Source: a virus. From it: a stretch of DNA of 64,000 nucleotides. The stretch spans positions 12,345 through 76,344 of the IMG/VR virus record IMGVR_UViG_3300027800_000004; one strand, 5' to 3'. The translations under genes and the position numbers were made by a program. Below the pieces are notes generated by a model. The model saw only the letters and a program-made list of their open reading frames with translations, did no database searches and was not told the DNA's origin. This document shows, piece after piece, positions 27,226-55,083 of this stretch (the first letter of the stretch is position 1; every line of letters starts with the position of its first letter).

Positions 27226-27301
27226 TATAAAGACAGCGGATGTGCTATTATCCGCTGCCAACAATTTCTATATGAAAGAACATGGTTGTATTTATACAAC
27301 C
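27226..27301 (-). ncRNA. Candidate 3'UTR-derived small RNA: 5' hairpin, anti-AUG seed, terminator
   Basis: Perfect inverted repeat GGTTGTA/TACAACC (27284-27301), then GUUCUUUCAUAUAG, then a CAGCGGAU/AUCCGCUG stem with a short U-tract; TATATTTG promoter-like box at 27222-27229. Confidence 0.45.
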
Positions 27302-28176
27302 GCTTTCGCTCTCTTCGTTTTTCCAATAAGATCCACTGTCTCCTGAAATTCCTTGTTTCCCATGTAGTAATCATACATGGCATCGTTGGGATCCGCTGAC
27401 GGAGGAACCTTTATTATCTTGGTGGCCTTCTTGCCTTCCTCAAGCCAGAGCCATTCCTTCTTCACCACATCGTATTTAAGGTATCCCTTATCAACGATCT
27501 CCTGTATCTTTCCCCTGATGACGATCAGTTCTTCCATATTCGTCATCTCCATGAACTTCTGATGACCGTGTTGCGGGTCACGCATGACCTGGTGTTCTAT
27601 GGCCATCTTTACCTGGGCAAAGGTGAGGTTATCAACATTCTTGATGAAATAGGCTTTGGCCAGTGCCCTTAATCTCTCTTCTGAAAGTCCAAAGTCTTTG
27701 TTCCAGATCATTGTCTTTACACCTGAGATCAGGGATTCTCTTTCTGCCTTTCTCTCTGCATCCGTGATCAGGTCCTCAAACATGAACTTGATAGTTTTGC
27801 CCTGGTTCTCTCCACCCTTGCAATACTGTGACTTGGTGTAAAGGAACCACACCAACTCGATATCCGTTTCCTCAAACGGTCTGCGGCCATTAAAACGAAA
27901 GTTCTTTGGTGTATATTTTTTCAGTCCGTGTTCTTTGATGATCACGTTCTCTGCATATCTCCACTGATCTGTGCCTAACTTTGTCTTGACTGTTGCTGTC
28001 AACGGCCAGGACATTGAGTTTGGTTTATCCGGGAGTTTATTCTGCTTTGATCTGCTCGGAACAATACGTTCCGGAGGGTAGATAATTGTCAACGGCCACT
28101 TTCCATGAAAGCGTTCATTGATTGTTTTCACATCTGTTGGTGCCAACTTGTACGGTTCTTCATTCTTGTATAACAT
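27292..28176 (-). CDS. Conserved crAss-like protein downstream of the major capsid gene (about 294 aa)
   Basis: Position after the MCP terminator; WRYAEN and FMFED...AE motifs. Start moved to ATG 28176 because the longer ORF overlaps the terminator. Confidence 0.6.
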   Translation of the reverse strand: MLYKNEEPYKLAPTDVKTINERFHGKWPLTIIYPPERIVPSRSKQNKLPDKPNSMSWPLTATVKTKLGTDQWRYAENVIIKEHGLKKYTPKNFRFNGRRPFEETDIELVWFLYTKSQYCKGGENQGKTIKFMFEDLITDAERKAERESLISGVKTMIWNKDFGLSEERLRALAKAYFIKNVDNLTFAQVKMAIEHQVMRDPQHGHQKFMEMTNMEELIVIRGKIQEIVDKGYLKYDVVKKEWLWLEEGKKATKIIKVPPSADPNDAMYDYYMGNKEFQETVDLIGKTKRAKAVV

Positions 28177-28203
28177 AGCCTTTAAGTATTGGTTTAAAAA
28201 ATC

Positions 28204-28238
28204 AAAAAGGAGAGAGGTTTTTAAGCCTCTCACCTTTT
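28204..28238 (-). terminator. Intrinsic terminator after the major capsid gene
   Basis: AAAAGG.GAGAGG / CCTCTC.CCTTTT stem with flanking U-tract. Confidence 0.7.
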
Positions 28239-28247
28239 ATGTTAAAG

Positions 28248-29621
28248 TTAGACTTCCATCAAAACGAACTGGTTGCCTCCACGGAAATGCGCTCCAATAT
28301 GCGCACGCATGTAGGTGTACCTGCTGTCAAACTCAGTTACCTTCAGTCCTTCACCGGCACCGCCAACCTGCCAGACTTCCATCCTGCGGTTGTACTTGCC
28401 AAGGCCACGATAGCGGCATCCAATAGATGACACCATGTTGCCAGATACAGGATCCTTACGTTTGTTGATAGGCATCCAGATACCCATTCTCGGAGCCTCA
28501 TAACCTGTGGCACCGTAAAGTTTTGGGTTATTGAATACGCCCATCCTCTTCATAAGGAACGTCCTCTCGGACTTCGTGAGGTAGGTGAAGTTCACTGAAG
28601 CACTCAGAGCTTCGTTGTTGTTGAAAAGAACACTGTTGGTGGCCTGTTTCGTATAATTGATATTGGTGTTTGCGAAATACGTTACAAGTCCATTCTCAAT
28701 GTCCTGATGGAGAGATATACCCAAAAGACCAAGGATGTAGTTTCCTGCATGTTCACGGTCCAGGGTATTATCCATTTCATCAAATTCGTCAACATCAAAT
28801 GCTCCTTGAGCATAGGTCTGCTCGTTCCCTACTCGTCTGATGTAAGGAATCATACCTTCAGTGGTCTTTATTGGCCGGCCCGTGTCCGGGTCTATCAGTC
28901 CTGCGTTGGTAGTGATCTTGTTCCACAGCAATGCTCCGTCAATTTTCAGAGCCATGCGATAGTCAATATCTACCTGTCCAAGAAAATAGTATGCAGGGAT
29001 AGCCTGTCCACGACTGGTCACGTTGAACCATGTCTGGTTGACCATTTCTGTTCCGGTGTAACCGATGGTTTCCTTGATGATCTGAGCCACGTTGTCATAC
29101 CTCCAAACGCCACGAATGGCACCATCTGGCTGACCTGACCCTTCTGACCATGCATCTGTGAAAATCACAAGTTCTTCACCTGCGGCAAGAGCCGGGAACT
29201 GGTCTGATACCTCGTTAGGCTCAACGGTAAGAACCGGTGCGCCAGGAACGGTAGTGTCAATGTCAATGATCGAACCCGGAACTTCATTTGGGAATAGGAT
29301 CTGATCCCAAAGTCTTGGATAGAAGTTATTATTCACATCAAGGTCCTGTGCATCCAGGGTGAAGGAGATAGGATCTCCTACAGCCGGTTGTACAACGGGA
29401 TCAAGGACATGTATAATCTCATGTATCCTGTTCTCTTCCCAATGTCCGTATTCGTCAAGTGATACCTGTTCCTCAAATCCCATTGATCTGAGTAACTGGA
29501 AATACGATGCTCCCTGATCGCCAAAGCGACTGAAAAGCACGTTCAGATTCTCCGGTTTATGAATATCAAATCCGGATACAATGTCTGAGGCATATATTTG
29601 TGCGATTGCTTCTGGTCCCAT
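28248..29621 (-). CDS. Major capsid protein (457 aa)
   Basis: DEYGHWEE, WSEGSGQP, NVAQIIKE, TTEGMIPYI, YRGLGKYNRRM and GGNQFVL motifs; portal-scaffold-MCP gene order. Confidence 0.85.
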   Translation of the reverse strand: MGPEAIAQIYASDIVSGFDIHKPENLNVLFSRFGDQGASYFQLLRSMGFEEQVSLDEYGHWEENRIHEIIHVLDPVVQPAVGDPISFTLDAQDLDVNNNFYPRLWDQILFPNEVPGSIIDIDTTVPGAPVLTVEPNEVSDQFPALAAGEELVIFTDAWSEGSGQPDGAIRGVWRYDNVAQIIKETIGYTGTEMVNQTWFNVTSRGQAIPAYYFLGQVDIDYRMALKIDGALLWNKITTNAGLIDPDTGRPIKTTEGMIPYIRRVGNEQTYAQGAFDVDEFDEMDNTLDREHAGNYILGLLGISLHQDIENGLVTYFANTNINYTKQATNSVLFNNNEALSASVNFTYLTKSERTFLMKRMGVFNNPKLYGATGYEAPRMGIWMPINKRKDPVSGNMVSSIGCRYRGLGKYNRRMEVWQVGGAGEGLKVTEFDSRYTYMRAHIGAHFRGGNQFVLMEV

Positions 29622-29671
29622 TTTATAGGATGTTAATTGTTAAACATAAATATTTGCCTCTCACTCTACTG

Positions 29672-30817
29672 TTATCTCCGGTCCATCTCAGCCTGGAATG
29701 CCTTCTTCTTGGCCTCTTCTTCTTCGTTTATGTCTCCACGATCTACGAGAGGCTGATCATCACCGCCCAATTTTGATGGGTTGTGATAATACTTTAAACT
29801 TTCCTCTTTTGTCAGACTTCTTGCCTTCTCAAAAATAGCATGATTGGCAAGTGCTTCATTTCTGGCCTTGATTTCAGAATACATAAATCTTGCTATTATG
29901 TCAATGTTTTTCTCATTAGCTTCCATCTGGTTGCTGATAGCAAAATCCAATGCGTCTTTCTGAACGGCCTTTAATGTTTCAGGGGGTACAACAAAGTTTA
30001 TAATAGGTTCTTTGCTGTTCGGCAGGAAATAGGGTATCGTAGATAACTTCTCTCCCATTGCCTTGTTTGCCCTGTCCCAGATAGTGTTTGCCTGGGTAGT
30101 CTGTTCTGGAGTCCATTGAATGATCTTTGGCTGCTCTGGTTCCGGTTCGGGGATAGTCAATTTCCCCTTTAATGCTAGAAGCATTGCTTTAGCCTTGGCT
30201 CCCTCTTGGGCAAGGCCAATTTTGTTTACTTCCAGATCTTCTTCGTCCACTTGTGAAGGATCCACATTATAGGTTTTCTCTATATGCTTGCGAAGTTGTG
30301 GCTCCTTTACTATGAGTTCCGGGTTTTCCAACTGTCTTGCCAGGATAATTGCGTTCATGTAGTCCATGTTCGCAATGTCAGATCCGTGCAAGCGGTTGAA
30401 TACATCAAAACTCTTGATGCCTGTCGTTCTTACAAACTCGTTGAACAAAGCCACATCATCGTTTGCAAAGTTCGATTTCGGTTTTGTCGCAAGTTTGCCG
30501 GAGAGATCGTTCTTCTCTGCGGTAAGTGCGTCAACCTGTTGTCTCAACTGGTCGGCCTCTTTAAGTCTTTCAGGAATATTGATTTTTTTCAACTCTTCAA
30601 CTGATGAAAACTGATCACCGAAAATCTCTTTCAGTATGCCAGTCGCATCAGCCGGGGGTGCTGCTTCGCTCTTGGGTGGTACCGGCGGTTGTGCCGGTGG
30701 TTGAGGTGGTGCCGGTTCTCCGGCAATTTGCCGCATGATATCCTCTGGATCCACGCCCTCAATACCTTTTAACGCATCTAATTCTGCTTCTCTGCCTTGT
30801 AATCCTGGTTTTGTCAT
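29672..30817 (-). CDS. Probable capsid scaffolding protein (381 aa)
   Basis: Acidic/Pro-rich N-terminus with coiled coil; lies between portal and MCP. Confidence 0.65.
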   Translation of the reverse strand: MTKPGLQGREAELDALKGIEGVDPEDIMRQIAGEPAPPQPPAQPPVPPKSEAAPPADATGILKEIFGDQFSSVEELKKINIPERLKEADQLRQQVDALTAEKNDLSGKLATKPKSNFANDDVALFNEFVRTTGIKSFDVFNRLHGSDIANMDYMNAIILARQLENPELIVKEPQLRKHIEKTYNVDPSQVDEEDLEVNKIGLAQEGAKAKAMLLALKGKLTIPEPEPEQPKIIQWTPEQTTQANTIWDRANKAMGEKLSTIPYFLPNSKEPIINFVVPPETLKAVQKDALDFAISNQMEANEKNIDIIARFMYSEIKARNEALANHAIFEKARSLTKEESLKYYHNPSKLGGDDQPLVDRGDINEEEEAKKKAFQAEMDRR

Positions 30818-30834
30818 AGCAATGAGTTTAGTTA

Positions 30835-30842
30835 CAAATATA
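30835..30842 (-). promoter_or_regulatory. Bacteroidota-type -7 promoter box TATATTTG upstream of scaffold/MCP
   Basis: Matches TAnnTTTG in a short intergenic gap. Confidence 0.45.
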
Positions 30843-30847
30843 GTTTA

Positions 30848-33154
30848 TTATGCCGATTGTGCTACTGGTGCCTGTGATGCTACTGCAGTCTTTTCGATGG
30901 CGTTCATCGTTGACTGAAGAGCAATCTTTTCTTTCTCCCTGGTGTGATTCAGACCTGCGTATTTCTCTTCCAATTCTTTTAACGCAGTCTCAAACCTAAT
31001 CTTTTCGTCAGTCTCAAACCTAATCTTTTCAAGTTCACCCTTCTGCTTTGACTGTATGCCTTCCAATTCTCTTTGCTTGTCCAGCATCATATTTTCTCGC
31101 TGAAGCTGCAACTGCTGTTCTTTATTTTTTGTACTCCGATAGTTGAGAAATGCTTCTGCATATTTGAGATTTCCGTTCTCAAGTAATCTCTCTATAAGCA
31201 AAAAGTCAGGTAACTCGATTCCTTTGTTGCCATCCCTGTCAGTTGCCATAGCCGCTATCGCTGCCTGGCGAATGGTTTCTTTTCGTTTCTCGGTAGGTTT
31301 GGCCTCGTACTTGATATAGTAATTGGCATCAACGACATCGGCTCCAACACTGATGATCTGTACTCCGGCCCTGCCCAGAACCGGTACATAGCCATCGTAT
31401 GCCTTCTTGTTGTGCTTTATGAGTAACTGCATACGAAGACATACATTCTTTGCCACCCTCTCTTTTGTCGTGATATAAGCGTTATAGATAGGCCGTAAGG
31501 CATTGTTTGTAGCAGCAATAGCCAGTTCTGATCCGCCAACGGATTGTTCCGGATTCGGATTAGACGCATCTGCGACTTGGTTGACACCTGTTACCTCCCT
31601 GATGAAGTTGATATACAGGTCAAAGATCTTAATAAACTCATCAAGCTGCTGGCCCAGACCTCCACTGAGTTCCTGAATAGGCCGGTAGCCTCCCGGTATG
31701 TTTGGCTGACCCTTGTGGGTCGTGGCTTTGTAGAGTAAGTCTCCACTCTGCTTCCGGATCTTCAATATTTCCAAAGGCTCCATCTTGTTACCGCCAAGTT
31801 TCATATTCTGAAGGGCGGTGTATTCGATAGAGATACCGGGAGGGGCGGCCATCGCCAGCGCATTTTGCAGCTTAATGTGAGCCAGTGCTATCTGGTGCAA
31901 GCACGGCTCGGCAGACATAACGATTGACTTATCTGGTCTTTTATAGAAATGATAGGATAATGCTACCTCTTTACCCTCTGGCCTGGGTATGTCGTGTTGT
32001 AGGCCGAAATCATACATAACGTCTGTTCCAATAACCCACTTAGCCTTGTAAACGACATGAATATCATAGACATTTGTTTTCTTCTTCTCTGTGTCTCTGA
32101 CCATTCCCCAATCTTCTTCATAAGTAAGATCTTCGCCATATTGTGTTTTCCTGGTAGTCCAGTATTCGCTATTGACTGACTTCCATTCAAAATCCAGGAC
32201 ATCAATTTTGAAATTACCCCATTTATAAGTAGCATCCTCGCAAGAAACACCTATGTCAAGATCGCTGAGAGTAATGTTACCATTAATCCCGTTGTATTGT
32301 TTTGCCAGTTTATTAATAACTGTCCGGTCAACACTTGGATCCTGCTTAATGATCGTTTCTACGGTTTCCTGCACAATCTCCCCGGCATATCTCATGTTCC
32401 TGTGATCGTAGGAACTGGAATACTGGCCTACAAACATGGCGGGATCCACGTACCTGGTCTTTACCTTTCCAACATAGTTGTCCGTATAGTCTTTTACACA
32501 AATGGCGTTGAATGTAACCATGTCACGGACCATCTTCATCTTTGTCTGTTTCCAATCGGAGATGTAAAAGGTATAATCAAGACCCTCTTCCATCTCTGTC
32601 TCCCGGCTCAACTTAAAGCCTCCCATGCTTGTGTAGAGATCCAGTTCCTCAACACTCTCCGGCATAAACTTCTTTCTTTTTTCCAGGCCCAGGCCGGCTT
32701 CGATCTCATTCACCATATCTGCAAACTGCATGTCAAATGCGGTACGCAACTTCTGTTCTTCTTTTTCCTTGCTGCTTTTTGGGTCAACGGCTGTGGCTAC
32801 AACCTGATGCTCTGTCTGCTCCATCATGCCCTCGATCACGCGCATGAACTTTGGCATTACTGAGAATACGTCAAAGTCCACGTTCATGTATCCTTCCATA
32901 GCACCATCTTCCTCACTCTCATCCAGAAGGATCTTTTGATACTTCAAAACATTCTGGTTGCCGTTGGCTAGGTCACGGAGTTCCTGTATCTCTTTAAGTC
33001 TGTTGTAGGGAATACATGTGAGGTTTTTCAACCATTGCGAGACAATGGCCTCGGCCCATTTTTTTGCCCAACTCTTCCCCTTCTTTTTCGGATTAATATT
33101 ATCGTCTGGGAACGGATATGAGCCTGTGCTATACTGGTCGTATGGTACTACCAT
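30848..33154 (-). CDS. Portal protein (768 aa)
   Basis: Size and position after TerL; LANGNQNVLKY, VMPKFMRVIEG, YVDPA, YAGE, YKAKWVIGT and IREVTGVN motifs. Confidence 0.88.
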   Translation of the reverse strand: MVVPYDQYSTGSYPFPDDNINPKKKGKSWAKKWAEAIVSQWLKNLTCIPYNRLKEIQELRDLANGNQNVLKYQKILLDESEEDGAMEGYMNVDFDVFSVMPKFMRVIEGMMEQTEHQVVATAVDPKSSKEKEEQKLRTAFDMQFADMVNEIEAGLGLEKRKKFMPESVEELDLYTSMGGFKLSRETEMEEGLDYTFYISDWKQTKMKMVRDMVTFNAICVKDYTDNYVGKVKTRYVDPAMFVGQYSSSYDHRNMRYAGEIVQETVETIIKQDPSVDRTVINKLAKQYNGINGNITLSDLDIGVSCEDATYKWGNFKIDVLDFEWKSVNSEYWTTRKTQYGEDLTYEEDWGMVRDTEKKKTNVYDIHVVYKAKWVIGTDVMYDFGLQHDIPRPEGKEVALSYHFYKRPDKSIVMSAEPCLHQIALAHIKLQNALAMAAPPGISIEYTALQNMKLGGNKMEPLEILKIRKQSGDLLYKATTHKGQPNIPGGYRPIQELSGGLGQQLDEFIKIFDLYINFIREVTGVNQVADASNPNPEQSVGGSELAIAATNNALRPIYNAYITTKERVAKNVCLRMQLLIKHNKKAYDGYVPVLGRAGVQIISVGADVVDANYYIKYEAKPTEKRKETIRQAAIAAMATDRDGNKGIELPDFLLIERLLENGNLKYAEAFLNYRSTKNKEQQLQLQRENMMLDKQRELEGIQSKQKGELEKIRFETDEKIRFETALKELEEKYAGLNHTREKEKIALQSTMNAIEKTAVASQAPVAQSA

Positions 33155-40418: not shown

Positions 40419-40452
40419 AACTCTTGATTTTAATTGGTCAGTCAAATTTATG

Positions 40453-42077: not shown

Positions 42078-42095
42078 AATTGCCGATATTAGGAT

Positions 42096-42402: not shown

Positions 42403-42432
42403 TTCTTTATTTTTTTAAAGAGTTAAACATCA

Positions 42433-42693: not shown

Positions 42694-42711
42694 TTTCTTA
42701 AGTATTAGTTA

Positions 42712-43290
42712 TTAAATTAGTGGAATTTCGATGTGTTTGATGATGCCATAGGCAATCTTGTTGCCGTCATTGCCAAAAGGAACAACATACAGATCAAGTC
42801 CACCTAACAGGGCCACATCCATATTGGCCGTGATCTTTTCAGTTGTCGTACTGGTAACAGGCGTTTCTGCTGCTGCAACAGTTAGTGCAGAGGAGAAGGA
42901 CGGATCTGTATCTACAAGAAAACCACAGGTAGTTGCAACATTATTGCTCTCTACTTTTGCGGAAAAATACAGCGTCATTGTATCTGTATCAAGGATGAGA
43001 TCTCCCATCCATACTTCTACCGGTGGCAACGTAGCCAGTTCCCATCCTCTCGTCAAAACAAGGTAAGCATCAGCATATCTTCCCTGATACTCATTCAAAA
43101 GAAGTTCCATCATCGGAAGATCCTTTACAAACTTCTCCTGTTGACGCTCACGGCCGGGACGTTTCTGTATTGCCCCCTTGTTTGTGTCCCAGGTGATTCT
43201 CTCTTCCAGAAAACTAAACCGGGTCTTTATCCTCACATTTCTCAGATGTGAGGCGGTACCCTGTCTGGATCCAATCGTAATTCTTGCCAT
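42712..43290 (-). CDS. Hypothetical protein with C-terminal Ig/FN3-like domain; possible distant third paralogue (192 aa)
   Basis: NEYQGRYADAYLVLTRGW weakly resembles NELRWRFDTAVDILCGGY; beta-rich C-terminus. Confidence 0.5.
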   Translation of the reverse strand: MARITIGSRQGTASHLRNVRIKTRFSFLEERITWDTNKGAIQKRPGRERQQEKFVKDLPMMELLLNEYQGRYADAYLVLTRGWELATLPPVEVWMGDLILDTDTMTLYFSAKVESNNVATTCGFLVDTDPSFSSALTVAAAETPVTSTTTEKITANMDVALLGGLDLYVVPFGNDGNKIAYGIIKHIEIPLI

Positions 43291-43337
43291 TTTTCACTTG
43301 GTTTTAAATGGTTACACTCAAAATTATCGTTATAAAG

Positions 43338-43739
43338 TTAAGTCTTTTTCCGTAGTAGGGCGTAGATGTTCTTATTTTCTTCATCATCTACCGATCTCTC
43401 ACAGATAATGAATGTGAATCTATCAGGACAGGTTGCCCCTGCCGGTCGTGATGTAACAGTCCAGGTCTTATCCATCACCAACGAAGCCAGATCTACCGAA
43501 TTAAACACCGCGCCACCTCTTCCATTCTTTCTTAATCGGTAGGTACTGCCTACTGAAATAAAAAACTCACTGGGGACATCTCCCTGAAAGACATCCACCA
43601 GTGAGCCGTGACGAACATTTAATCTGACTAACGCCACATTTGACAGTATGACCACCCCACGCCTGGTAAATGATATCGTGGCTAACTTATTATGGCTCTT
43701 GTTGGCCAATCCCTCCCTGGTCAACCGAACAAATTTCAT
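43338..43739 (-). CDS. Hypothetical protein (133 aa)
   Basis: ORF within the operon. Confidence 0.55.
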   Translation of the reverse strand: MKFVRLTREGLANKSHNKLATISFTRRGVVILSNVALVRLNVRHGSLVDVFQGDVPSEFFISVGSTYRLRKNGRGGAVFNSVDLASLVMDKTWTVTSRPAGATCPDRFTFIICERSVDDEENKNIYALLRKKT

Positions 43740-43945
43740 CTCCCATCAAATATCTTACCCCAGATATTCTCGTTGTAGTGCCTCTTTGGATTAAATTGGT
43801 TCTTTTTGTGCAGCTTTGGGTAATCTGCCCTCTCTTTGGCAGCCTTTGTGTCATTGTACGCAGCACACTTGCTCGTAGCAGTACGGTAACTTGAACACGA
43901 CATCAGTAACAATGTCATCACAATTAATAACGCGATCTTTTTCAT
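43736..43945 (-). CDS. Small lipoprotein (69 aa)
   Basis: MKKIALLIVMTLLLMSC lipobox; KCAAY motif. Confidence 0.65.
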   Translation of the reverse strand: MKKIALLIVMTLLLMSCSSYRTATSKCAAYNDTKAAKERADYPKLHKKNQFNPKRHYNENIWGKIFDGR

Positions 43946-43957
43946 AGCAATATGGTT

Positions 43958-44284
43958 TTAGGTGTTATCTTCATTCTTTACAACAGGTGGCATAACCTTA
44001 ATCTCCGGTCCCTTCTGTTCGGTCTTATCCACCTGCCCGGATACTAATCGTAGCAACTGATCAACCTCCACCCCTTCCCTGGCTACTATCACCAGGTACC
44101 AGTACAAGACATTACTCATGCTGATGATCTTGCTCATCCTCTCATACTCCCCTCCAAACTTATTCCGGGGATCCAGACTTAAATTCATCAGTAACATGGC
44201 ATCATGCAGCTTGTTTAGGACATCCTTGCCATCTTCTGCCTTTAACTCCTTCATCTGTGCAACCAACTCTTCTACTGTTCTCAT
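43958..44284 (-). CDS. Hypothetical protein (108 aa)
   Basis: ORF with AACTAAAAACTAAGAGAT leader. Confidence 0.55.
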   Translation of the reverse strand: MRTVEELVAQMKELKAEDGKDVLNKLHDAMLLMNLSLDPRNKFGGEYERMSKIISMSNVLYWYLVIVAREGVEVDQLLRLVSGQVDKTEQKGPEIKVMPPVVKNEDNT

Positions 44285-44296
44285 ATCTCTTAGTTT

Positions 44297-44578
44297 TTAG
44301 TTCCTGTTATATCCACTCATCCTTTCCCTTCCATTTACCCTCTGCTTTCCCTTATACAGCGTAAAACTACGAAAGATCATATAATCCCCCTCTACTAATA
44401 CATCCCTCTTCTTCCTGCTGAATATGTACGTTAACCGGTCCCTCTTTATTCCCGTCATCCCTTCCAGTGTTACCAGGTTCGTGCAATTACTCACCATACA
44501 GTCTGTCAAATCATCCGTTATCGCCTTTCCCCCCAGGCAAACTACTGTGTAAATCCTCTGTATCCTCTTCCGGTTCAT
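44297..44578 (-). CDS. Hypothetical protein (93 aa)
   Basis: First gene downstream of the TAGCTTTG box. Confidence 0.55.
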   Translation of the reverse strand: MNRKRIQRIYTVVCLGGKAITDDLTDCMVSNCTNLVTLEGMTGIKRDRLTYIFSRKKRDVLVEGDYMIFRSFTLYKGKQRVNGRERMSGYNRN

Positions 44579-44623
44579 AATCGTGTAAAATCAGCCATTA
44601 CAACTTAGCGGCCCGTACACTTG

Positions 44624-44631
44624 CAAAGCTA
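44624..44631 (-). promoter_or_regulatory. -7 promoter box TAGCTTTG for the leftward operon
   Basis: TAnnTTTG match followed by CA, about 45 nt upstream of ATG 44578. Confidence 0.5.
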
Positions 44632-44639
44632 ATTTAATT

Positions 44640-45139
44640 TACGACATAGGACTACGCAAAATGGTAAAAAGTTATTAACAAGTAATTAATTTTATACCAA
44701 AGTGAGCGTCTGCCTGCGGTCTATGTATATATTTCAGGCTCGGTCGCGCGAACCCAAATCGGATTTGCGTACCCGCCCCCCCTGCCTGGGCCTCTCCAGG
44801 CGTTTTGTGTCCGTGCCTTTAAAGTGGTTCTGCCCTGTCCAACAACAAAATAAAGCGTTCTGACCTGTTGTTGATAGGGTAGGGGAGAGGATCTATAAAC
44901 ACAATGCCTTCATGTTCTATTTAACATAATGATAATTATGGGCAATGTAGTCAGCCATCATGTCATGCCTGTCTGAGTGTGTCATCCCTGCATCCTGTGA
45001 GCCTGTAAATGTGGCCTCTTTTGTGCTTGATACAATTCAATGAACGTACATAATGAATGGTGTGGATGATGCGTTAAATGGGTTGAAATGCTTAAATTTG
45101 CGTGTTAAATGGGTTGTTAACCTCTTGAGAGTTGCATAA
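44640..45139. other. Non-coding strand-switch region, possible genome terminus/packaging site
   Basis: Longest gene-free stretch; GC-rich patch with ACCCGCCCCCCC near 44771; repeat GTTAAATGGGTTG twice near 45073 and 45104; TAAATTTG box at 45093-45100. Confidence 0.4.
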
Positions 45140-45691
45140 ATGAATGAGAACCTGTCCCCTGCGCCATCCTTGCCTCCTTCTCTGGCTTATCTGTATTCAA
45201 ACCTATCAATGGAAGAACAAAGGGTCTTTCATAAGGTGTTCAATAGTATGTGGGGTGTTGTTGCTCCCTTGAAGCGGTTCGTTCATCATGGTGGTGTCAT
45301 GTATGCCTATTGGGTTGCTGATAAACTGCGTGAAGAACATAACCTCACCAATGTGGAGTTATCCCTGCTCATGTATTTGTATCATGTGTCTGGTGGTGGC
45401 AGACAGGTCATTGATGGTGTAGATCTCCTCGCTGCTCCCTCCTTCCCCTGCTCGTATAACTATTGGATGGTGTTGTCCGGTCAGTTTAAACAACGTGGTT
45501 ATATCGTGCGTTCTGTTCGTAACCCTGCTAAACCATATACATCTGGGTATCGTGCAAAGGGAATGAGATACATAAGACTAACCGACAAAGCAATTAACTT
45601 GATACATGATATGGATAGAGAGTTGTACAGGCGGTTGCGGTCTTGTACGTTCAACGATGTGGTGTGTGGATATGGAAAAGGGCAGATATAA
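45140..45691 (+). CDS. Winged-helix (MarR-like) DNA-binding protein (183 aa)
   Basis: HNLTNVELSLLMYLY...QFKQRGYIVR...IRLTDKA pattern. Confidence 0.55.
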   Translation: MNENLSPAPSLPPSLAYLYSNLSMEEQRVFHKVFNSMWGVVAPLKRFVHHGGVMYAYWVADKLREEHNLTNVELSLLMYLYHVSGGGRQVIDGVDLLAAPSFPCSYNYWMVLSGQFKQRGYIVRSVRNPAKPYTSGYRAKGMRYIRLTDKAINLIHDMDRELYRRLRSCTFNDVVCGYGKGQI

Positions 45692-45724
45692 CTCTGCCCT
45701 CTGTCCTGTGGTCTTATTTGAGGT

Positions 45725-46090
45725 TTAAATAACTCCCATTGCAATCCCCTGTTTCAGCATGTACTCTGAACTGCACCAATGTATTTGATTAATGATAACA
45801 TTGATGTTCGTCTTGTGGTCTGCTTCATTGCCTTCATCATCCATGCCAATAATCATTGACTTGCCAAGAATAGCATATACAAAGCCATTGAACATCCATC
45901 CGGCCTGTGGTGCATCCTCATTGAACTCAATCCATGCCTCTTCGTTGCAGTATAGCACATCTCTGTTAGGATAAGTGATAGGTGCTTCAATCATGTGGCA
46001 GTCTAAGAGCCTGTAAATGTCCTTGAGGCTTCCGGTTGTTTCAACCTGTGTTACTTCCTTTGTGTCTGGGTTAATTAAAATTGCTTTCAT
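45725..46090 (-). CDS. DUF3846-like protein (121 aa)
   Basis: MKAILINP...SLKDIYRLLDC..IE...LYCNEE...ILGK..IIG.DDEG pattern. Confidence 0.6.
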   Translation of the reverse strand: MKAILINPDTKEVTQVETTGSLKDIYRLLDCHMIEAPITYPNRDVLYCNEEAWIEFNEDAPQAGWMFNGFVYAILGKSMIIGMDDEGNEADHKTNINVIINQIHWCSSEYMLKQGIAMGVI

Positions 46091-46102
46091 TGTCGTGTGT
46101 GT

Positions 46103-46348
46103 TTATAGGTTATTAATCAGTTGCATTAATTCATCCGGTTTGCGGTCATCCTTGACGTTGTTACAGGCAAGTGCATAGAATATTGAACTCCCCATAACAA
46201 GATTGTCATAGGGGTCAATAATAGGGTCAATGGTCTTAATCTCATTGACATTTAACCATGTTGATTTTGGTTCGGTTGTCTTGAAATAGCGTTCTTCTTT
46301 TGAGTGCCATATCCATGACCATGTACATTTAAGAATGTGTGTTCTCAT
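46103..46348 (-). CDS. Hypothetical protein (about 81 aa)
   Basis: Likely ATG at 46348; leader contains AAACACAC. Confidence 0.45.
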   Translation of the reverse strand: MRTHILKCTWSWIWHSKEERYFKTTEPKSTWLNVNEIKTIDPIIDPYDNLVMGSSIFYALACNNVKDDRKPDELMQLINNL

Positions 46349-46352
46349 CTCC

Positions 46353-46598
46353 TTATTTATTAGTGTGTTTGACTTCAATTATAGCCTTCCAACATGAGTC
46401 GCAAACATAGTCAGAAGGGTATGGGTCTATGCAGTTCTGAAATGCCACCCATTGTTCGGGCGTGTACTCTGGGATTGCCTCCTGTTCTCTCCGGTAGTCA
46501 CCTACAAATGACATGATTAACAGGGTAATGAATAAGGCCAACGTAACAACGATTAGGCCGATGTTCATCTGTTCTTCTACGTTCTTGGTTTTCATCAT
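46353..46598 (-). CDS. Small membrane protein with CxxC (81 aa)
   Basis: One TM helix and CDSC; leader AACACACACTAAAACACG. Confidence 0.5.
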   Translation of the reverse strand: MMKTKNVEEQMNIGLIVVTLALFITLLIMSFVGDYRREQEAIPEYTPEQWVAFQNCIDPYPSDYVCDSCWKAIIEVKHTNK

Positions 46599-46619
46599 CT
46601 TGCGTGTTTTAGTGTGTGT

Positions 46620-46769
46620 TCTGCGTTGTTTGATACTGCAATATTATACTATATAATAACACGAACAAATTTATTTTGACGAATAGTTCGTTTTTTTTGA
46701 CGAACGGATTTGTTGGTTTAATATATTAGTGTATCTTCACATCGTATTAATAACATAATAACACACACA
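46620..46769. promoter_or_regulatory. Divergent early promoter region with TTTTGACGAA direct repeat
   Basis: AT-rich gap between divergent operons; TTTTGACGAA occurs twice near 46674 and 46695. Confidence 0.5.
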
Positions 46770-47429
46770 ATGAACACACGACAATTAGAATTGCAAGAAC
46801 CAGATGCTAAACTGCTCTACATGGGTAAGTCAGCATTGTCAGACAGGGACATTATGTCTTTAATTCTGGCAGGGAGTGACAACAAGAACAAGGCTGACAA
46901 GGTATTGAAAGCCTCAGATTTCAATTTTGATAGTATGTCAAAGTATTGTTACACCGATTTGAAAGCGTTCGGATTATCCCATTTACAGGCCGTTCGCTGC
47001 ATTGCAGTTATTGAGTTCGCCAAGCGGTTGAATATACACAGGGTTGACGAACAGACACAAATTAGGTCAAGTTCAGACATCTTTGCTTACATGTCCCCCA
47101 TCCTCTCAGACCTTGACCATGAGGAATTTTGGGCAATCCTGTTGAACAGGGCAAACCGCATCATTAAGCGTGTCAAAATCTCACAGGGTGGCATAGCGGG
47201 AACGGTCACCGACATCCGCATATTGTTCAAACATGCCATTAATGACCTTGCCTGTGGCCTTGTGGTATGCCATAACCATCCCTCTGGCAATACCTCTCCC
47301 TCTGATAGTGACATCCGCATAACTCAGAAGATTAAGGAGACAGGGAACATTATGGACATACAGGTATTAGACCATGTAATTATCGCCAAGAGTGAACACT
47401 ATTCCTTTGCAGATAACGGAACGCTATAA
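46770..47429 (+). CDS. radC: RadC-family JAB/MPN-domain protein (219 aa)
   Basis: G..ALSD, HEEFWAILLNRANRII, SQGGIAGTVTD.R, HNHPSG...PS.SD and LDHVII motifs. Confidence 0.92.
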   Translation: MNTRQLELQEPDAKLLYMGKSALSDRDIMSLILAGSDNKNKADKVLKASDFNFDSMSKYCYTDLKAFGLSHLQAVRCIAVIEFAKRLNIHRVDEQTQIRSSSDIFAYMSPILSDLDHEEFWAILLNRANRIIKRVKISQGGIAGTVTDIRILFKHAINDLACGLVVCHNHPSGNTSPSDSDIRITQKIKETGNIMDIQVLDHVIIAKSEHYSFADNGTL

Positions 47430-47451
47430 CACTAACTAACACACAAATAAC

Positions 47452-47775
47452 ATGGAAACAATTTACATTTTCAACTACTCACCGAAGGCCATTGTTGTCG
47501 TGGGTGACACCAAGCCAATTCACGGACTACTCAAGAACGCAGGGGGCAAATGGAACGCCCGATTAACCGATTTAAGGACAGGGAACAAGTTTGGAGGTTG
47601 GGTATATCATCATACTCGTTTGGCTTCCATACAGGCCACATTAACGGCCAATGCAATCAAGTTCGCAATGGAGAGGCCGTCAAGCCTCTCCTCCCTCTCA
47701 TCCACAGGTCGGGATTATATCCAAGACCCTGCTGAAATAGATGCTGACAACTTTTGCCAACGTAACAATATCTGA
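47452..47775 (+). CDS. Hypothetical protein (107 aa)
   Basis: YSPKAIVVVGDTKPI...LK..GGKWN..L...GWVY, a pattern recurrent in phage proteins. Confidence 0.6.
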   Translation: METIYIFNYSPKAIVVVGDTKPIHGLLKNAGGKWNARLTDLRTGNKFGGWVYHHTRLASIQATLTANAIKFAMERPSSLSSLSSTGRDYIQDPAEIDADNFCQRNNI

Positions 47776-47777
47776 AC

Positions 47778-48161
47778 ATGGCACAGACAGGACTATTCAC
47801 AGGCGAAGAGATGCGTGGTACAGGTCAGATGAACATGCTGAACTCCATAGACCACCAAGAGGACAGGATTAAAAGCCTCCGCAAACAGGTACACCATTAC
47901 CATTATGATGCAGGGCATGGATGGTTAGAGGTGGAACTTGCTGACCTTTCAAAATTAGGCATAAGCCATGCTATCTCCGGTTTCTCATTCAGACATGGTG
48001 ACAAAGCATATTTGGAAGAAGATAGCGATGCGGTTCTCTATATTAACACACTCTTCCCGAACCGACATGTTGACCCCGAATATCCGATATTTCAAGACCA
48101 CATGAGGGGTATAAATGATGGTGACAACTCACACATCAGAAGATACGCACACTACAAATAA
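47778..48161 (+). CDS. Conserved phage hypothetical protein (127 aa)
   Basis: DAGHGWLEV...ISGFS...YLEEDSDA...SHIRRY motif pattern. Confidence 0.6.
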   Translation: MAQTGLFTGEEMRGTGQMNMLNSIDHQEDRIKSLRKQVHHYHYDAGHGWLEVELADLSKLGISHAISGFSFRHGDKAYLEEDSDAVLYINTLFPNRHVDPEYPIFQDHMRGINDGDNSHIRRYAHYK

Positions 48162-48211
48162 CATGAACAACGCCTCCCTGCTACGGCAGGGGGGCATAAA
48201 AACAAAAGACA

Positions 48212-48409
48212 ATGGCAATACTTATTAGAATTGGAGACAGAGTACAACGCAATCAAGTCGGTGACTATACTCATGGCCGTAGAGGAGATGTTGTTGATAT
48301 TAATGGTGAAAGACTGAGGGTAAAATGGGATATGTTCCCAAGTGGTGTAATGATGAAAACCCCTGTTCGTACATGGGTGAATGTAAAGAGACTTGTTAAA
48401 ATAGGATAA
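48212..48409 (+). CDS. Small SH3/KOW-like protein (65 aa)
   Basis: IRIGDRV...GRRGDVVDI...RVKWD pattern. Confidence 0.5.
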   Translation: MAILIRIGDRVQRNQVGDYTHGRRGDVVDINGERLRVKWDMFPSGVMMKTPVRTWVNVKRLVKIG

Positions 48410-48418
48410 CACACAAAC

Positions 48419-48661
48419 ATGAAAAAAACATATCATATATCAACCTACAAAGAGGTTTTTATTGAAGCAACCACCAAAAAAGAATGTATTGCTATAATGA
48501 AGCAATATGAGCAAAAGGGGTGGAAAGCTGATAAGCCTATTAGAAAAGGAGATTGGGATAGTTCTGGTTTAATTTACTATGTATTTATGAGTAAAGAAAC
48601 AGGCGGATATATCAATGCTCCTCCTACCGACATAACTGCGAACCCTCATACATTTAATTAA
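48419..48661 (+). CDS. Hypothetical protein (80 aa)
   Basis: ORF with AACACACAAAC leader. Confidence 0.55.
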   Translation: MKKTYHISTYKEVFIEATTKKECIAIMKQYEQKGWKADKPIRKGDWDSSGLIYYVFMSKETGGYINAPPTDITANPHTFN

Positions 48662-48684
48662 TAAATCTTTAAACACACAAAACA

Positions 48685-49959
48685 ATGACAACTACACAGA
48701 TTAGTACCAAAGACAACCGCACACCTATCTATTACATAGGTCTTGTGCGTGAAGGCCGTAAACTCATCATACAGGCCAAAGAAAGCGTTGATGAGTTATC
48801 ATGTGAGATAACTGACTACTTAGGGCCAAGACAGGTAAGCAAGGCCACGATTGAGGCAAATAAGACCATCCTTCTGGAAGGCTTTAAGGCCGACCCGAAA
48901 TACCGCAACTGCGACATGGTTGAGGTACAAGAGCCGGAAGAGGTTTACACAAGGCCGGAGGTCACAAAGTTCAAACAGATAGCATACCTTGAGCAGATGC
49001 AAAAGAAAATGATGGACTTAAACCAAAGTATGCACGACTTAAACATGCTTTGGCAGAAGGATATGCAGTTTGACTTGGATATGAACGATTATCTTGCCAA
49101 CCAATACCCTTTTAACTTCTCTTTTGATGACCTTGTTATAGAGGCTGATGTTTGGTATCAGAAAGGTTGGGTTGCTTTAAATCAAAAGATAAAGGTATTG
49201 CAGGGGTATCCGGCTGATAAGGTGTACGGCACACAGAATAACGAGCAGAAGGTTGAAGAGCCTTCTGCTCCCTACTACACTCCCGAAGAGGCACAGGGCA
49301 AATGGATATGCGCCTACGATACAATGTGCGGTGGATGGGATTGTGTCCGCTATTCCGGTGGTGACAAAGATGGCTATCCTGTCCTGTATGGCAGTAAGAG
49401 AGAGGTTGAGGCTGATGATTTCTTTGATGGTGAGGATGACTTTGCAATATTGGCTACTGAGTTCATTGAAGGCCGCAAGGCTTTCTTTGGTGCTAATGGC
49501 CTACACATTGAAGGCATACCCATAGTTAAAGGCTACCGGATTAAGGGCAACAAGACAACCATGAGGGCAGAAGAACCGGAGGCAAAGTATGAGATTAAGG
49601 TTGCAAAGGCATGGCAGAGTTCGGAGTTCTTCCCAAATGGCCTTGACATCATTGCTCTGGAGTTAGATTACAGGGACAGAATAAAATTACTTGGTGCAAT
49701 AGAAAAGTGCAAATTGTATGGCTATGACCATATAGCCGTTCATGCAGGGAGAGGAGCAGAATATCTCACAAATGAGGGAGATGAGGTTGAGTTTTACACC
49801 GATGTTGAGTATTTTAAAGTATTCAATGATTGTGTATATTTCTATGCACAGAGCAAGTATGATAGCGGTTGCCAAGTTGAAAGCGAACGCATTGTAATTA
49901 CAAACAACTTGGCTATTGAGTTACCCGACCATGTTGAATACGAAGTTGAACAACAATAA
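48685..49959 (+). CDS. Mosaic hypothetical protein (424 aa)
   Basis: Long ORF with AACACACAAAAC leader. Confidence 0.6.
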   Translation: MTTTQISTKDNRTPIYYIGLVREGRKLIIQAKESVDELSCEITDYLGPRQVSKATIEANKTILLEGFKADPKYRNCDMVEVQEPEEVYTRPEVTKFKQIAYLEQMQKKMMDLNQSMHDLNMLWQKDMQFDLDMNDYLANQYPFNFSFDDLVIEADVWYQKGWVALNQKIKVLQGYPADKVYGTQNNEQKVEEPSAPYYTPEEAQGKWICAYDTMCGGWDCVRYSGGDKDGYPVLYGSKREVEADDFFDGEDDFAILATEFIEGRKAFFGANGLHIEGIPIVKGYRIKGNKTTMRAEEPEAKYEIKVAKAWQSSEFFPNGLDIIALELDYRDRIKLLGAIEKCKLYGYDHIAVHAGRGAEYLTNEGDEVEFYTDVEYFKVFNDCVYFYAQSKYDSGCQVESERIVITNNLAIELPDHVEYEVEQQ

Positions 49960-49970
49960 TAACACACACC

Positions 49971-50444
49971 ATGAAAGCAACAGAGACATTTAAAGGCGTT
50001 ATCAAGGCTTATTGCGATGAGAGGGCGTTATCAGATTTCCCCTTCTCTGAGGCATTAAAGAAGGCCGATAGGAACATTGAGGATTGTGTTACATACATTC
50101 TCAATGAGGTCAAGAAAAGCGGATGCGAAGGCTTTGCTGACCAAGAGATATTCAACATGGCAGTACACTACTATGAGGCCGAAAAGGTTGAGATAGGGGA
50201 TAAGTCTATTAGTGCCAACGTGGTGGTGAACCATCATATTGACAAGCCAAAGCCAACTGCCATTGCCAAGTCAGACAAGAAGGCTTCCGCACCCAAGACA
50301 GAGAAGAAGGCAGATACCAAGCCAACCATTGCTCCGATGAGTGTCATCAAGAATATTACAGATAAGTATTTTGATGCCAAGAAGGAGGAAGAACCAAAGA
50401 AGGATGGGGATAAGCCTCAGTTCATTCAAACCTCATTATTCTGA
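49971..50444 (+). CDS. pcfK: PcfK-like protein (157 aa)
   Basis: MKATETFK..IKAY...IEDCVTYILNEVKKSGC.GFAD.EI..MAVHYY...QTSLF pattern. Confidence 0.85.
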   Translation: MKATETFKGVIKAYCDERALSDFPFSEALKKADRNIEDCVTYILNEVKKSGCEGFADQEIFNMAVHYYEAEKVEIGDKSISANVVVNHHIDKPKPTAIAKSDKKASAPKTEKKADTKPTIAPMSVIKNITDKYFDAKKEEEPKKDGDKPQFIQTSLF

Positions 50445-52419: not shown

Positions 52420-52490
52420 CATAACTCAAACCTTCGGGGATGAGAGAAGGAGGACAGGTTTTTGTGTGTTCCCTGTTCTCCTTCATTTTT
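52420..52490 (+). ncRNA. Terminator/candidate small RNA whose 13-nt loop is antisense to the early-gene AACACACA motif
   Basis: Stem GAAGGAGGACAGG (52446-52458) / CCTGTTCTCCTTC (52472-52484), loop TTTTTGTGTGTTC, then ATTTTT. Confidence 0.6.
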
Positions 52491-53316: not shown

Positions 53317-53324
53317 CATAGCGA

Positions 53325-53398: not shown

Positions 53399-54484
53399 TT
53401 ATTTGGTTAATTCATCTGTGCTTCCCAATGAATTGATCTGAAAGTGAAGATCAAAAGACAGGACAGGTGCGGAAGCATTACCGCCTGTATTATATGGACA
53501 AGTGCCGGTAAATTGAAGACTGGCATTTGATGTGTCTCTGTAAATCCGGAATTGGATGATGTCAGAAAGCGTACTGCCAACGGGAGCAAGAATAGGTAAA
53601 GAGTAAGAAATCTGATGAATGGTCGTGCCAGGAGTGTAAGGGAAGGCCAGACTATTGCATTTCAAGAATGTCCAAGCCGTTACTTTTGCTGCTGCGTTAA
53701 TCTGCCACCGATATTGAAATAGAAAGTTTGGAATATAGTTCTTTGCTTGCATCCAATGAATGTGAGGATAAACAGATACGGACAAATCCTTATCATGGTT
53801 AAGCTGCACGTTCTTATAAATCATGTCAGCCAAGGCAGGGTTAGCATTATAAGCCGCATTGAAATCAAAATCAACCGTACTTTCTGTTATGTTAAGAGTA
53901 ATGCCAGCACCGCTTCTCTGGATAGACAGAGCATCCCCTAATTCATCTCGCCAAGGCCGTGCATCTCCCTCCATTACCTGATGTCCGGTAGCATCAAACT
54001 CCGTTGTGTCTGGTGCATCTCCCATGATCTGATGATCGGTAATACCATAACCATCAATAGTCGTTGGCTTACCTGTAATGTTATCCCAGGCGATTGTATC
54101 TTCATCGCTGAATTTGGTAATGTATTCCATGCTTAAGCCAACAGCAACTAAAGAGTTATAGCCATTTGCCATAGCAACACCAACCTTTAAGTATGATGTC
54201 TCAGAACCAGATAATGCCCTTGCAGTTCCTCTTATCCCACCATCTCCCGAAATTAAAGATCGGATGACATCTCCTTGTTTACATCTGCCATTGATGAAAA
54301 CAAAGACCAAGCCAGAGGTTACTACTTCACAGAGAAGGCCATTTGATATGCCTCCCTCAGTAATAACACCGAGCATCTTCTGTTCGTTATTGCCAAGCAA
54401 GGCAAAGGAGTTTTTTTGGACAGGATTAACCTTCACAAGCCGACCAAGAACCGAACTATTTCCGGTAGCGTTAATGACCTTCAT
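53399..54484 (-). CDS. Structural-type protein (DUF2190-like N-terminus, fibre-like linker, beta-sandwich C-terminus; 361 aa)
   Basis: GVITEGG...CEVVTSG; WDNITGKPTTIDGYGITD fibre motif; QLNHD...YPHIHW...FDLHFQINSLGS. Confidence 0.55.
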   Translation of the reverse strand: MKVINATGNSSVLGRLVKVNPVQKNSFALLGNNEQKMLGVITEGGISNGLLCEVVTSGLVFVFINGRCKQGDVIRSLISGDGGIRGTARALSGSETSYLKVGVAMANGYNSLVAVGLSMEYITKFSDEDTIAWDNITGKPTTIDGYGITDHQIMGDAPDTTEFDATGHQVMEGDARPWRDELGDALSIQRSGAGITLNITESTVDFDFNAAYNANPALADMIYKNVQLNHDKDLSVSVYPHIHWMQAKNYIPNFLFQYRWQINAAAKVTAWTFLKCNSLAFPYTPGTTIHQISYSLPILAPVGSTLSDIIQFRIYRDTSNASLQFTGTCPYNTGGNASAPVLSFDLHFQINSLGSTDELTK

Positions 54485-54992
54485 CGAATGTTGGATTTTC
54501 TTTGGTTAAAAGTTTTTTACACTCATCAAGGTACATGGTATTTAGTTTGGTGATGATCACATGTACCTCTTCCGGAGAGTATTTAATACCGATTAAAAGA
54601 CCCTTGTGTGAAGGGAAGTATTTCTTATACTCTGCCTTGAGTTCTTCCTTCAGAGCCTCTAATTTGGCCCAATCAGCCTTGTTTATGCCCCCAGATGCCG
54701 CCTCAACCTCTTTAGAATACAATATTCGCGCTTCTTCCGTACCATCATCGTAAAGGGCATGCTCTCCGGGCGTAAGGAGAACGATATTCTTAAGGTAGTT
54801 GCGAAAATACGGGAATTTGTTCTGCCCTTTGGCTAAAACGTGGGCAAACATATTAAAGAAGAGGGGTGTAGCCTCATAACTGCGAAGCCAGAAGCCAGTA
54901 ATGAAGGATTTCTTTGGTCTGGTGATCCAGACAATCCGAAAGGTTGCTCTTAAACTGAGATCAATCGGAATGATAGTATTTTCTTTTTCCAT
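54471..54992 (-). CDS. HNH-like nuclease-fold protein (173 aa)
   Basis: KSFITG...FAHVLAKG...FPYFR....NIVLLT..EH..YD pattern. Confidence 0.5.
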   Translation of the reverse strand: MEKENTIIPIDLSLRATFRIVWITRPKKSFITGFWLRSYEATPLFFNMFAHVLAKGQNKFPYFRNYLKNIVLLTPGEHALYDDGTEEARILYSKEVEAASGGINKADWAKLEALKEELKAEYKKYFPSHKGLLIGIKYSPEEVHVIITKLNTMYLDECKKLLTKENPTFDEGH

Positions 54993-55005
54993 AATTCAAA
55001 GATAT

Positions 55006-55070
55006 AAAAAAGGAGGCCACACCATCTCAGTGAAGCCTCCCTTAACTAAAAACAGTAAGTAAGAGTTATC
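55006..55070 (-). ncRNA. Candidate stand-alone small RNA (about 65 nt) with anti-leader seed
   Basis: TAACTTTG box at 55075-55082; CUCUUACUUACUGUUUUUAGUU; GGAGGC/GCCUCC terminator + U6; second box TATCTTTG at 54997-55004. Confidence 0.55.
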
Positions 55071-55083
55071 GGGTCAAAGTTAG

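Follow-up and report, generated by a model that had tools for sequence, protein, structure and literature searches.

The stretch of DNA analysed here, hereafter the window, is 64,000 nucleotides (nt) long and corresponds to bases 12345-76344 of a single virus record of 76,344 base pairs (bp), IMG/VR IMGVR_UViG_3300027800_000004. An original prediction, made from the letters of the window, had grouped five of its intergenic hairpin regions, named here C1 to C5, into one network of small antisense RNAs directed against translation-start regions. All five hairpin regions are present, but the comparison of related phages leads us to sort them differently, and with reasonable confidence we favour the view that they do not constitute one class: C2 and C5 would be small RNA genes acting on the operon encoding the head proteins, C4 would be the terminator of an early operon feeding back on that operon, and C1 and C3 would be terminators. 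Thus, instead of a uniform network, there is probably a smaller RNA layer, predicted to be aimed mainly at the head operon. As to the shared five-member design, a promoter-like box upstream of the hairpins exists in C2 and C5 only; in C1, C3 and C4 a terminator comes after a stop codon, and the promoter of the next gene may or may not follow; these three do not possess the promoter of their own that a trans-encoded small RNA should have.

Relatives were gathered by protein- and pattern-based searches of IMG/VR and of metagenomes, which returned many related contigs; 10 of these, whole genomes or large fragments (G001 to G010), were compared with the present phage (G000), which makes 11 genomes. 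When BLAST was run with the intergenic sequences on the first five relatives, the C2 region was found conserved in four of them, and C3, C4 and C5 were matched in the closest relative only; more sensitive searches widened the range of C4 and C5. All five cassettes sit between co-directional genes: C1 comes after a 294-amino-acid (aa) gene, itself downstream of a capsid-like gene, C2 after the gene of a DnaD-like helicase loader, C3 before a DUF6734 gene, C4 inside the plus-strand early block and C5 after a RecT-like gene. Each of the five carries an intrinsic terminator, i.e. a GC-rich stem-loop followed by a U run, 3' of a gene of the same strand (C1 and C2 were detected by a terminator scan, and C3, C4 and C5 were seen as GC-rich stems followed by T runs), and the position of the terminator is kept across relatives, with compensated stems, for all five.

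The genes of the window have A-rich leaders and no Shine-Dalgarno (SD) sequences. The TAnnTTTG box, the -7 motif of Bacteroidota housekeeping-type promoters, occurs 65 times in the window for 55 occurrences expected. Over the whole genome, 12 of the 74 boxes lie within the 3,050 intergenic bases, where 3.0 were expected (a fourfold enrichment), and every one of the 12 is directed towards the gene that follows; with the reversed pattern as a control, 4 occurrences out of 73 were intergenic. Since the intergenic boxes are both concentrated and oriented with the next gene, a Bacteroidota-type host is plausible for this phage.

C2 occupies positions 40446-40545 of the minus strand, from promoter box to terminator. 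It begins with a promoter-like -7 box, TAACTTTG (40538-40545), which in every relative has the form TAYCTTTG and is located 5-7 nt before hairpin 1 (40513-40533), a 7-bp stem closed by the almost invariant loop AUGCCGA. There follow a single-stranded pyrimidine-rich tract (40486-40512), which contains invariant columns and ends in the anti-start segment UCAUAGCAA (40490-40498), and an intrinsic terminator (40451-40485) made of a 12-bp stem and a U run, the stem of which differs among relatives and is still paired. The same succession was found in an alignment of 13 sequences, namely the TAYCTTTG box, 5-8 variable nt, hairpin 1, a tract of the type UCUGCUUUCUUGUU..CAU.GCA and a variable third hairpin. 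The covariance model derived from this alignment detected a single copy close to the DUF6734 gene both in the window and in 22 related contigs, at scores down to 19 bits; all but one of the related genomes possess it. Conservation of the region far exceeds that of the flanking proteins, whose identity is 45-57%.

The conservation of C2 is accompanied by clear covariation. At least nine different stems were counted for hairpin 1, all of them paired, and those of the distant members are entirely different around the same loop. In an alignment of 23 sequences, the five modelled pairs all change on both sides and 99% of the cells are paired; the covariation score was 0.42 against 0.19 for shuffled alignments, a value reached by none of 500 shuffles, and slid controls scored between 0.03 and 0.09. 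The predicted fold of the RNA has an energy of -31.7 kcal/mol (z = -4.5). In most relatives a second promoter box directly follows hairpin 3, which gives C2 the appearance of a separate unit; in the window this box is TAAATTTG (40443-40450, minus strand), identified by motif match in front of gene 40095-40418. C2 thus displays, as far as sequence can tell, the two attributes of a small RNA gene, a unit with its own promoter and terminator and a conserved exposed seed beside a covarying structure. We conclude that C2 is a putative stand-alone gene specifying an RNA of about 85-90 nt, the tail of which would consist of CAUAG and 3-6 variable bases before the terminator. Two further structures were considered and discarded: hairpin 2, which is mostly made of G-U pairs and is lost in distant members, and a long-range helix between the tract and an A-rich arm upstream of the box, which is predicted in a longer RNA but whose arm varies without compensation.

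The proposed target of C2 is the 5' untranslated region (5'UTR) and the AUG codon (UUGCUAUGA, 30814-30822, minus strand) of gene 29672-30817. This minus-strand gene of 381 aa lies between the portal gene (30848-33154) and a capsid-like virion structural gene (28248-29621, minus strand) which weakly matches the SU10 major capsid protein; it occupies the position of a scaffold gene and belongs to no PHROG or Pfam family. Its 5'UTR must be short because its own promoter box, TATATTTG (30835-30842, minus strand), is 17 nt upstream of the AUG; this box is conserved as TAnnTTTG(T) in the relatives. To assess pairing, a helix was started at the AUG and lengthened on the 5'UTR side, which is free of coding constraint; both Watson-Crick and G-U pairs were allowed. 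Among all the genes of each genome (43 to 114), the 381-aa gene gave the longest or tied-longest helix in six of nine genomes (G000, G001, G002, G003, G004 and G008) and the second-longest in G010.

Matched changes between the RNA and the 5'UTR also argue for this target. C2 sequence CAUAGCAA faces UUGCUAUG in G000, CAUAGCAU faces AUGCUAUG in G010, CAUAGUUAGUU faces AACUAACUAUG in G008 and, if G-U pairs are included, CAUGGCAGUG faces CAUUGCUAUG in G003. The variable bases that change together are CAA with UUG, CAU with AUG, UUAGUU with AACUAA and, again with G-U pairs, GCAGUG with CAUUGC. Cognate RNA-target pairs were better than permuted ones, both by duplex energy (P = 0.0017) and by 5'UTR helix length (P = 0.024), and at least three of the lineage-specific compensations look independent. 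The pairing with the 5'UTR and AUG of 29672-30817 was thus kept through sequence changes, with G005, G007 and G009 as exceptions. The main target that had been attributed to C2, a 69-aa gene (43736-43945), was not supported by the comparison: no orthologue of it is detectable in the relatives, though the C2 RNA is conserved there.

The start of the DUF6734 gene (41202-42077, minus strand; of the AUGAUNNNGAAAGCAG type) was also considered as a conserved target of C2 and was rejected, as it is protein-constrained and pairs poorly in this genome. Two short complements of the C2 loop AUGCCGA were noticed apart from the tract: UCGGCAU at the portal stop codon (30850-30856, minus strand), 39 nt upstream of the AUG of the C2 target, and UCGGCA just before the DUF6734 AUG (42080-42086, minus strand). 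Both are kept in several relatives; the UCGGCAU motif showed no genome-wide enrichment, and the loop variants of G005 and G008 are unmatched.

C5 (about 55004-55082, minus strand) resembles C2 in its layout. It starts with the same promoter-like -7 box, TAACTTTG (55075-55082), which overlaps the stop codon of the RecT-like gene and is found in nine of nine homologues, continues with a conserved 5' pairing segment, AACUCUUACUUACUG (55053-55067), and ends with a terminator hairpin (55004-55041) whose loop CUGAGAUGG (55022-55030) is kept on varying stems and is followed by a U run. In the homologues the order is a TAnnTTTG box, 5-9 nt, the conserved 5' segment, a variable spacer, the terminator and its U run. 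The predicted fold has an energy of -20.5 kcal/mol. A search combining motif and fold revealed a single such unit per genome in 9 of the 11 genomes, the other two being fragments. The terminator stems differ (for example GGGAGGC, CGAGG, GGGUAG, GAGACA) around a loop in which GAGAU is invariant; the compensation of these stems was judged by inspection, since MAFFT followed by RNAalifold mis-registers the C5 terminator and the alignment is too poor for a formal count.

The segment originally proposed as the C5 seed, GUUUUUAGUU, falls in the non-conserved spacer, and its start-codon target had to be abandoned with it: the conserved 5' end is predicted to pair elsewhere, at positions 29657-29677 of the minus strand. 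This site directly follows the stop codon of 29672-30817 and precedes the AUG of the capsid-like gene by about 55-65 nt. The duplex between the 5' segment and the orthologous site has 12-17 bp and an energy of -16 to -20 kcal/mol in nine of nine genomes (-19.0 kcal/mol in this one). When all windows of both strands were ranked, the site was among the best 0-0.6% in every genome (approximately 10,000 windows each, 3,859 in the fragment G004). Two clades have different sites, of types CAGUAAGUAAGAG and CAGUAAUCACAAGAGG, that match two types of C5 seed, and cognate pairs again surpassed permuted ones (P = 0.002). A hand count on the duplexes gave about 137 pairs, of which 10 were G-U, with three 1x1 mismatches, one of them an RNA-incompatible transition, and six bulges or small loops. 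Because the differences between seed and site are mostly of the G-U type or bulges, RNA pairing is favoured over two copies of one protein-binding DNA site. With its own box and terminator, an exposed conserved seed and a target kept through sequence changes, C5 is, by the same comparative reasoning, a putative second small RNA gene, whose product of about 70 nt is predicted to pair at the junction between the 381-aa and capsid-like genes.

Start regions were also examined as partners of the C5 5' segment, and no consistent orthologous match emerged. One of them, that of gene 43958-44284 (43958-43980, minus strand; ACAGUAGAAGAGUU), resembles the C5 target motif and gives a predicted duplex of -19.9 kcal/mol; the closest relative does not carry it at the corresponding place. 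A box, TATCTTTG (54992-55004, minus strand), ends only 4 nt before the ATG of gene 54471-54992, the mRNA of which would then be leaderless; no box is found at that place in the relatives. Lastly, the C5 loop CUGAGAUGG recurs identically and in the same sense at positions 29683-29691 (minus strand), close to where the 381-aa gene ends and some 10 nt before the pairing site; G004 carries CCGAGAUGG at both places. A common protein or RNA partner for the loop and for this gene-end sequence is possible.

C4 (52444-52493, plus strand) differs from the two preceding elements. It is the terminator of an early operon, with a 13-bp stem (hairpin 52444-52484), a 13-nt loop, UUUUUGUGUGUUC (52459-52471), and a U run; the energy of its predicted fold is -21.4 kcal/mol. 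Eight early genes that adjoin one another, distributed on both strands between 45725 and 50444, have leaders of the AACACACA type to which the loop is complementary, with AACACAC(A) 3-14 nt before the ATG. The 11-nt complement is in the leader (48672-48682, plus strand) of gene 48685-49959, and similar CA-rich leaders precede genes 45725-46090, 46103-46348 and 46353-46598 on the minus strand and the genes starting at 46770, 47452, 48419 and 49971 on the plus strand. CA-rich leaders also cluster in the corresponding modules of G001, G003, G004, G005, G008 and G010, and AACACAC(A) may be a translation-enhancing leader specific to these phages. Terminators with a U(n)GUGUGU(n)U loop over unrelated stems are present in G001, G004, G005, G008 and G010, each of them downstream of CA-leader genes, so that the GU loop and the CA leaders occur together in six genomes, the present phage included. 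Leaders with at least 7 nt complementary to the C4 loop numbered 9 out of 87, versus 5 out of 261 interior windows, in G000, and 7 out of 114 versus 4 out of 342 in G010. As the loops of terminators normally drift, the conservation of this one argues for a function. Taken together, these sequence data suggest that C4 is the terminator of the CA-leader early operon and that pairing between its loop and the leaders could let the 3' end of the operon feed back on its genes.

C1 and C3 are ordinary intrinsic terminators. In C1, the terminator (27232-27259, minus strand) is followed by the next Bacteroidota-type promoter, box TATATTTG at 27222-27229, the whole spanning 27222-27259 and overlapping the region 27226-27301 that had been singled out; a strong hairpin with a U run exists after the 294-aa gene in every relative, with different, compensated stems, and a TAnnTTT-type box usually comes next. 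The start of gene 59472-60575, which had been assigned to C1 as its target, was rejected for its poor ranks in the relatives: tested with the corresponding 3' untranslated regions, the orthologous start ranked 32nd of 87, 16th of 102, 9th of 76, 11th of 75, 68th of 97, 38th of 102 and 56th of 114 start regions. A YUUUCAU motif is present 5-15 nt upstream of the C1 terminator (27260-27291, minus strand) and also in G001, G005, G008 and G010; no target was found for it. C3 (stem and U run at 42096-42139, minus strand, before the DUF6734 gene, within the proposed region 42096-42156) has a terminator kept in five relatives with unrelated stems, and its supposed seed, CUUUUUUCCAUG, is kept in the closest relative only. 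Seed-target covariation in related phages, which had been put forward as a check, is found for C2 and C5, as matched changes, and not for C1, whose target is not kept, or C3, whose seed is not.

The complementarities to start windows on which the network had been built do exist, at a length of 10-11 nt, but in this genome they are no better than those of shuffled sequences. The longest perfect complement between a cassette and any start window (-30 to +15) was 10, 10, 10, 11 and 10 nt for C1 to C5, respectively, while dinucleotide shuffles of the cassettes gave about 9.2 nt on the average; the probabilities of reaching the observed value were 0.37, 0.36, 0.29, 0.09 and 0.32, and 26% of random genomic 70-mers reached a 10-nt complement. 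The match statistic summed over the five cassettes gave P = 0.027, before correction for the cassettes having been picked by their matches. This genome alone therefore makes no case for an antisense network. Antisense matches of 10-16 nt inside one genome are uninformative, and it was only the comparison of relatives that separated the real elements from the terminators; by that comparison the original interpretation is supported in kind for C2, C4 and C5.

What the putative small RNAs would do can be sketched. We infer that they are made, that they pair in vivo and in which direction and when they regulate. Transcription of C2 and C5 would start at promoters belonging to these elements, which lie in the replication and recombination modules, and the mRNA of the head operon would be the partner of both. 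By covering the AUG and the short 5'UTR of the 381-aa gene, with which the operon begins, the tail of C2 would block ribosome loading. In Bacteroidota initiation is not SD-led and masking the AUG region is especially effective; it is the standard mode of action of start-masking small RNAs. At the gene junction, C5 could promote processing, cause polarity or alter translation of the capsid gene. As to C4, accumulating early transcripts may damp the translation of the early genes. The distribution of these RNAs over early, middle and late expression, as well as host targets, would be a further extrapolation. An extension that we put forward only tentatively is that this family of phages of about 70-80 kb, putatively crAss-like, uses a conserved three-element circuit in which C2 and C5 jointly gate head-protein synthesis after transcription and C4 feeds back on the early leaders. 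If this holds, it would be the first RNA-based layer of timing control to be described in Bacteroidota phages. Few phages of Bacteroidota are as abundant as the crAss-like ones, whose timing of gene expression is largely uncharted; text searches of the literature found no description of small RNAs in them.

A number of observations weigh against this reading and bear on the two RNAs and on the terminator alike. The C2-target pairing is absent in G007 and weak in G005 and G009, the RNA of G009 having no CAU. By total duplex energy, other start regions often outrank that of the 381-aa gene, and the DUF6734 start is the top energy match of C2 in G002, G005 and G009. Any coding start rich in purines is a good partner for the pyrimidine tract of C2, and the average score of interior windows is about the same; the energy rank of the tract is significant against shuffles, but most of that significance comes from the encounter of an uninterrupted stretch of pyrimidines with purine-rich mRNA. 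The genomes being related, the permutation P values exaggerate how independent the comparisons are. The transcription starts of C2 and C5 are deduced from the box motif, and the predicted site of C5 is not at a start codon. For C4, the leader enrichment is not significant in G008, and the loop and leaders are of low complexity and invariant, so that no covariation signal can be obtained from them.

These reservations have to be set against what other explanations would require. If C2 and C5 were conserved elements acting in cis or on DNA, their complementarity to the head operon would be that of a protein-binding motif shared in both orientations; C2 might then be a structured 3'UTR, a processing signal of the loader transcript or an origin-associated element, and C5 the leader or attenuator of the next gene. 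We regard this as unlikely, although several facts agree with it. C2 always adjoins genes of the replication-initiator type, which differ among relatives, and the region upstream of its box is an imperfect inverted repeat of the tract, so that a longer, read-through RNA could fold this A-rich arm onto the tract; C5 has, in the relatives, no second promoter between its terminator and the next gene; and the same-sense identity between the C5 loop CUGAGAUGG and the end of the 381-aa gene is left unexplained by antisense pairing. However, the A-rich arm shows no compensating changes with the invariant tract, the second box that follows hairpin 3 of C2 in most relatives marks a separate unit, and the match of C2 includes the AUG itself and follows the changes of the 5'UTR. 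As for C5, the hand count revealed seed-site differences that are mostly compatible with G-U pairing, plus bulges, which a DNA site read by a protein would not selectively tolerate. An explanation of a different kind, that C2 is conserved for a peptide of 23-47 aa, seems to us most improbable. An open reading frame (ORF) of 23-47 codons does span C2 in all the relatives examined (40464-40565, minus strand, 33 codons in the window), beginning at a conserved ATG some 28 nt before the box; its N-terminus is often rich in lysine, arginine and glutamate and its tail hydrophobic. Yet neither its length nor its C-termini are conserved, the invariant loop would be translated as MPT in some relatives but as NAD or DAD in others, and the tract is read in at least two frames. 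Since loop and tract fall in different frames across relatives, the constraint must bear on the nucleotides rather than on a protein, and indeed the conserved blocks show no synonymous variation, whereas the hairpin stem varies with perfect compensation.

The last explanation to be considered is that the five regions are ordinary punctuation, five terminators and promoters, whose matches arise by chance when U-rich flanks are confronted with A-rich and purine-rich starts. C1 and C3 fit it fully, the single-genome matches are at chance level and polypyrimidine tracts do pair with many purine-rich windows; for the set as a whole it nevertheless appears very unlikely, and for C2, C4 and C5 it is disfavoured. 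It does not explain why near-invariant loops or single-stranded tracts persist over freely changing stems in these three, nor why a promoter box should stand directly upstream of the terminator in every relative for C2 and C5, nor the lineage-specific changes of each RNA matched with those of one orthologous site. We therefore retain C2 and C5 as candidate small RNA genes and C4 as a candidate feedback terminator. C2 and C5 would each represent a new RNA family whose boundaries are defined and whose seed is conserved, and because each has one predicted target with natural compensatory variants, their pairing is directly testable in reporters. Should the RNAs act as proposed, a lytic phage would restrain or shape the expression of its own head operon by base pairing.

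Several known systems offer points of comparison. The c4 antisense RNA of phages P1 and P7 is processed from the operon of its own target, controls icd/ant and governs immunity. It is short and structured, its exposed segments bind the translation start of a phage gene located elsewhere and repress that gene, and seed and target co-vary between related phages, a logic that C2 and C5 would share in kind; unlike it, they have their own boxes, their predicted target is the head operon and their place is in the replication and recombination modules of a phage that is apparently lytic, and there is no match in sequence or structure, an Rfam scan that should include the c4 family having found nothing. 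The OOP RNA of lambda and the sar RNA of P22 are also small phage RNAs which end at intrinsic terminators and control phage genes by base pairing, but they are cis-antisense RNAs transcribed opposite their targets, whereas 10-25 kb separate C2 and C5 from the sites that they are predicted to bind, which lie on the same strand. Bacteroides has small RNAs that mask start regions, such as GibS. The setting is the same, a host phylum with TAnnTTTG promoters and SD-independent initiation in which pairing at or near the AUG represses; these are, however, chromosomal RNAs of the host, whereas C2 and C5 are phage-encoded, unrelated to them in sequence and have phage genes as predicted conserved targets. 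C4, with its GU-rich loop facing CA-rich early leaders, recalls the enterobacterial GcvB RNA, the G/U-rich seed of which pairs with C/A-rich translation-enhancing elements in leaders: in both cases one seed corresponds to many leaders that share a motif. It differs in being the terminator hairpin of the very operon that it mirrors, not a separate gene, and it has no Rfam match. GcvB needs Hfq, a protein which, to our knowledge, is generally absent from Bacteroidota.

Searches beyond the set of relatives yielded little. No hit was obtained when the whole window was scanned with Rfam release 15 at gathering thresholds, and the top match of a permissive scan around C2 was the trpB motif, with 29 bits for a threshold of 59. 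A look-up of sequencing runs for positions 40400-50399 listed none of RNA. In a phage collection, no named relative was matched either by DNA or by the capsid-like protein; a locus search with a 456-aa early protein found no relatives of the early region. Scanning bacterial genomes with the C2 pattern gave chance matches only, hence no prophage or host clue, and the same scan of metagenomes gave mostly chance matches, with about 10 true C2 homologues.

Outside the five cassettes, the intergenic regions with divergent promoters at 44579-45139 and 46599-46769 are conserved in several relatives. In the former there is a terminator-like hairpin (44783-44802, plus strand); around 44723-44863 it also holds a small conserved element, either an ORF or an RNA, and the conservation of the start of this element extends to G001. 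Further non-coding elements may be present in these two regions.

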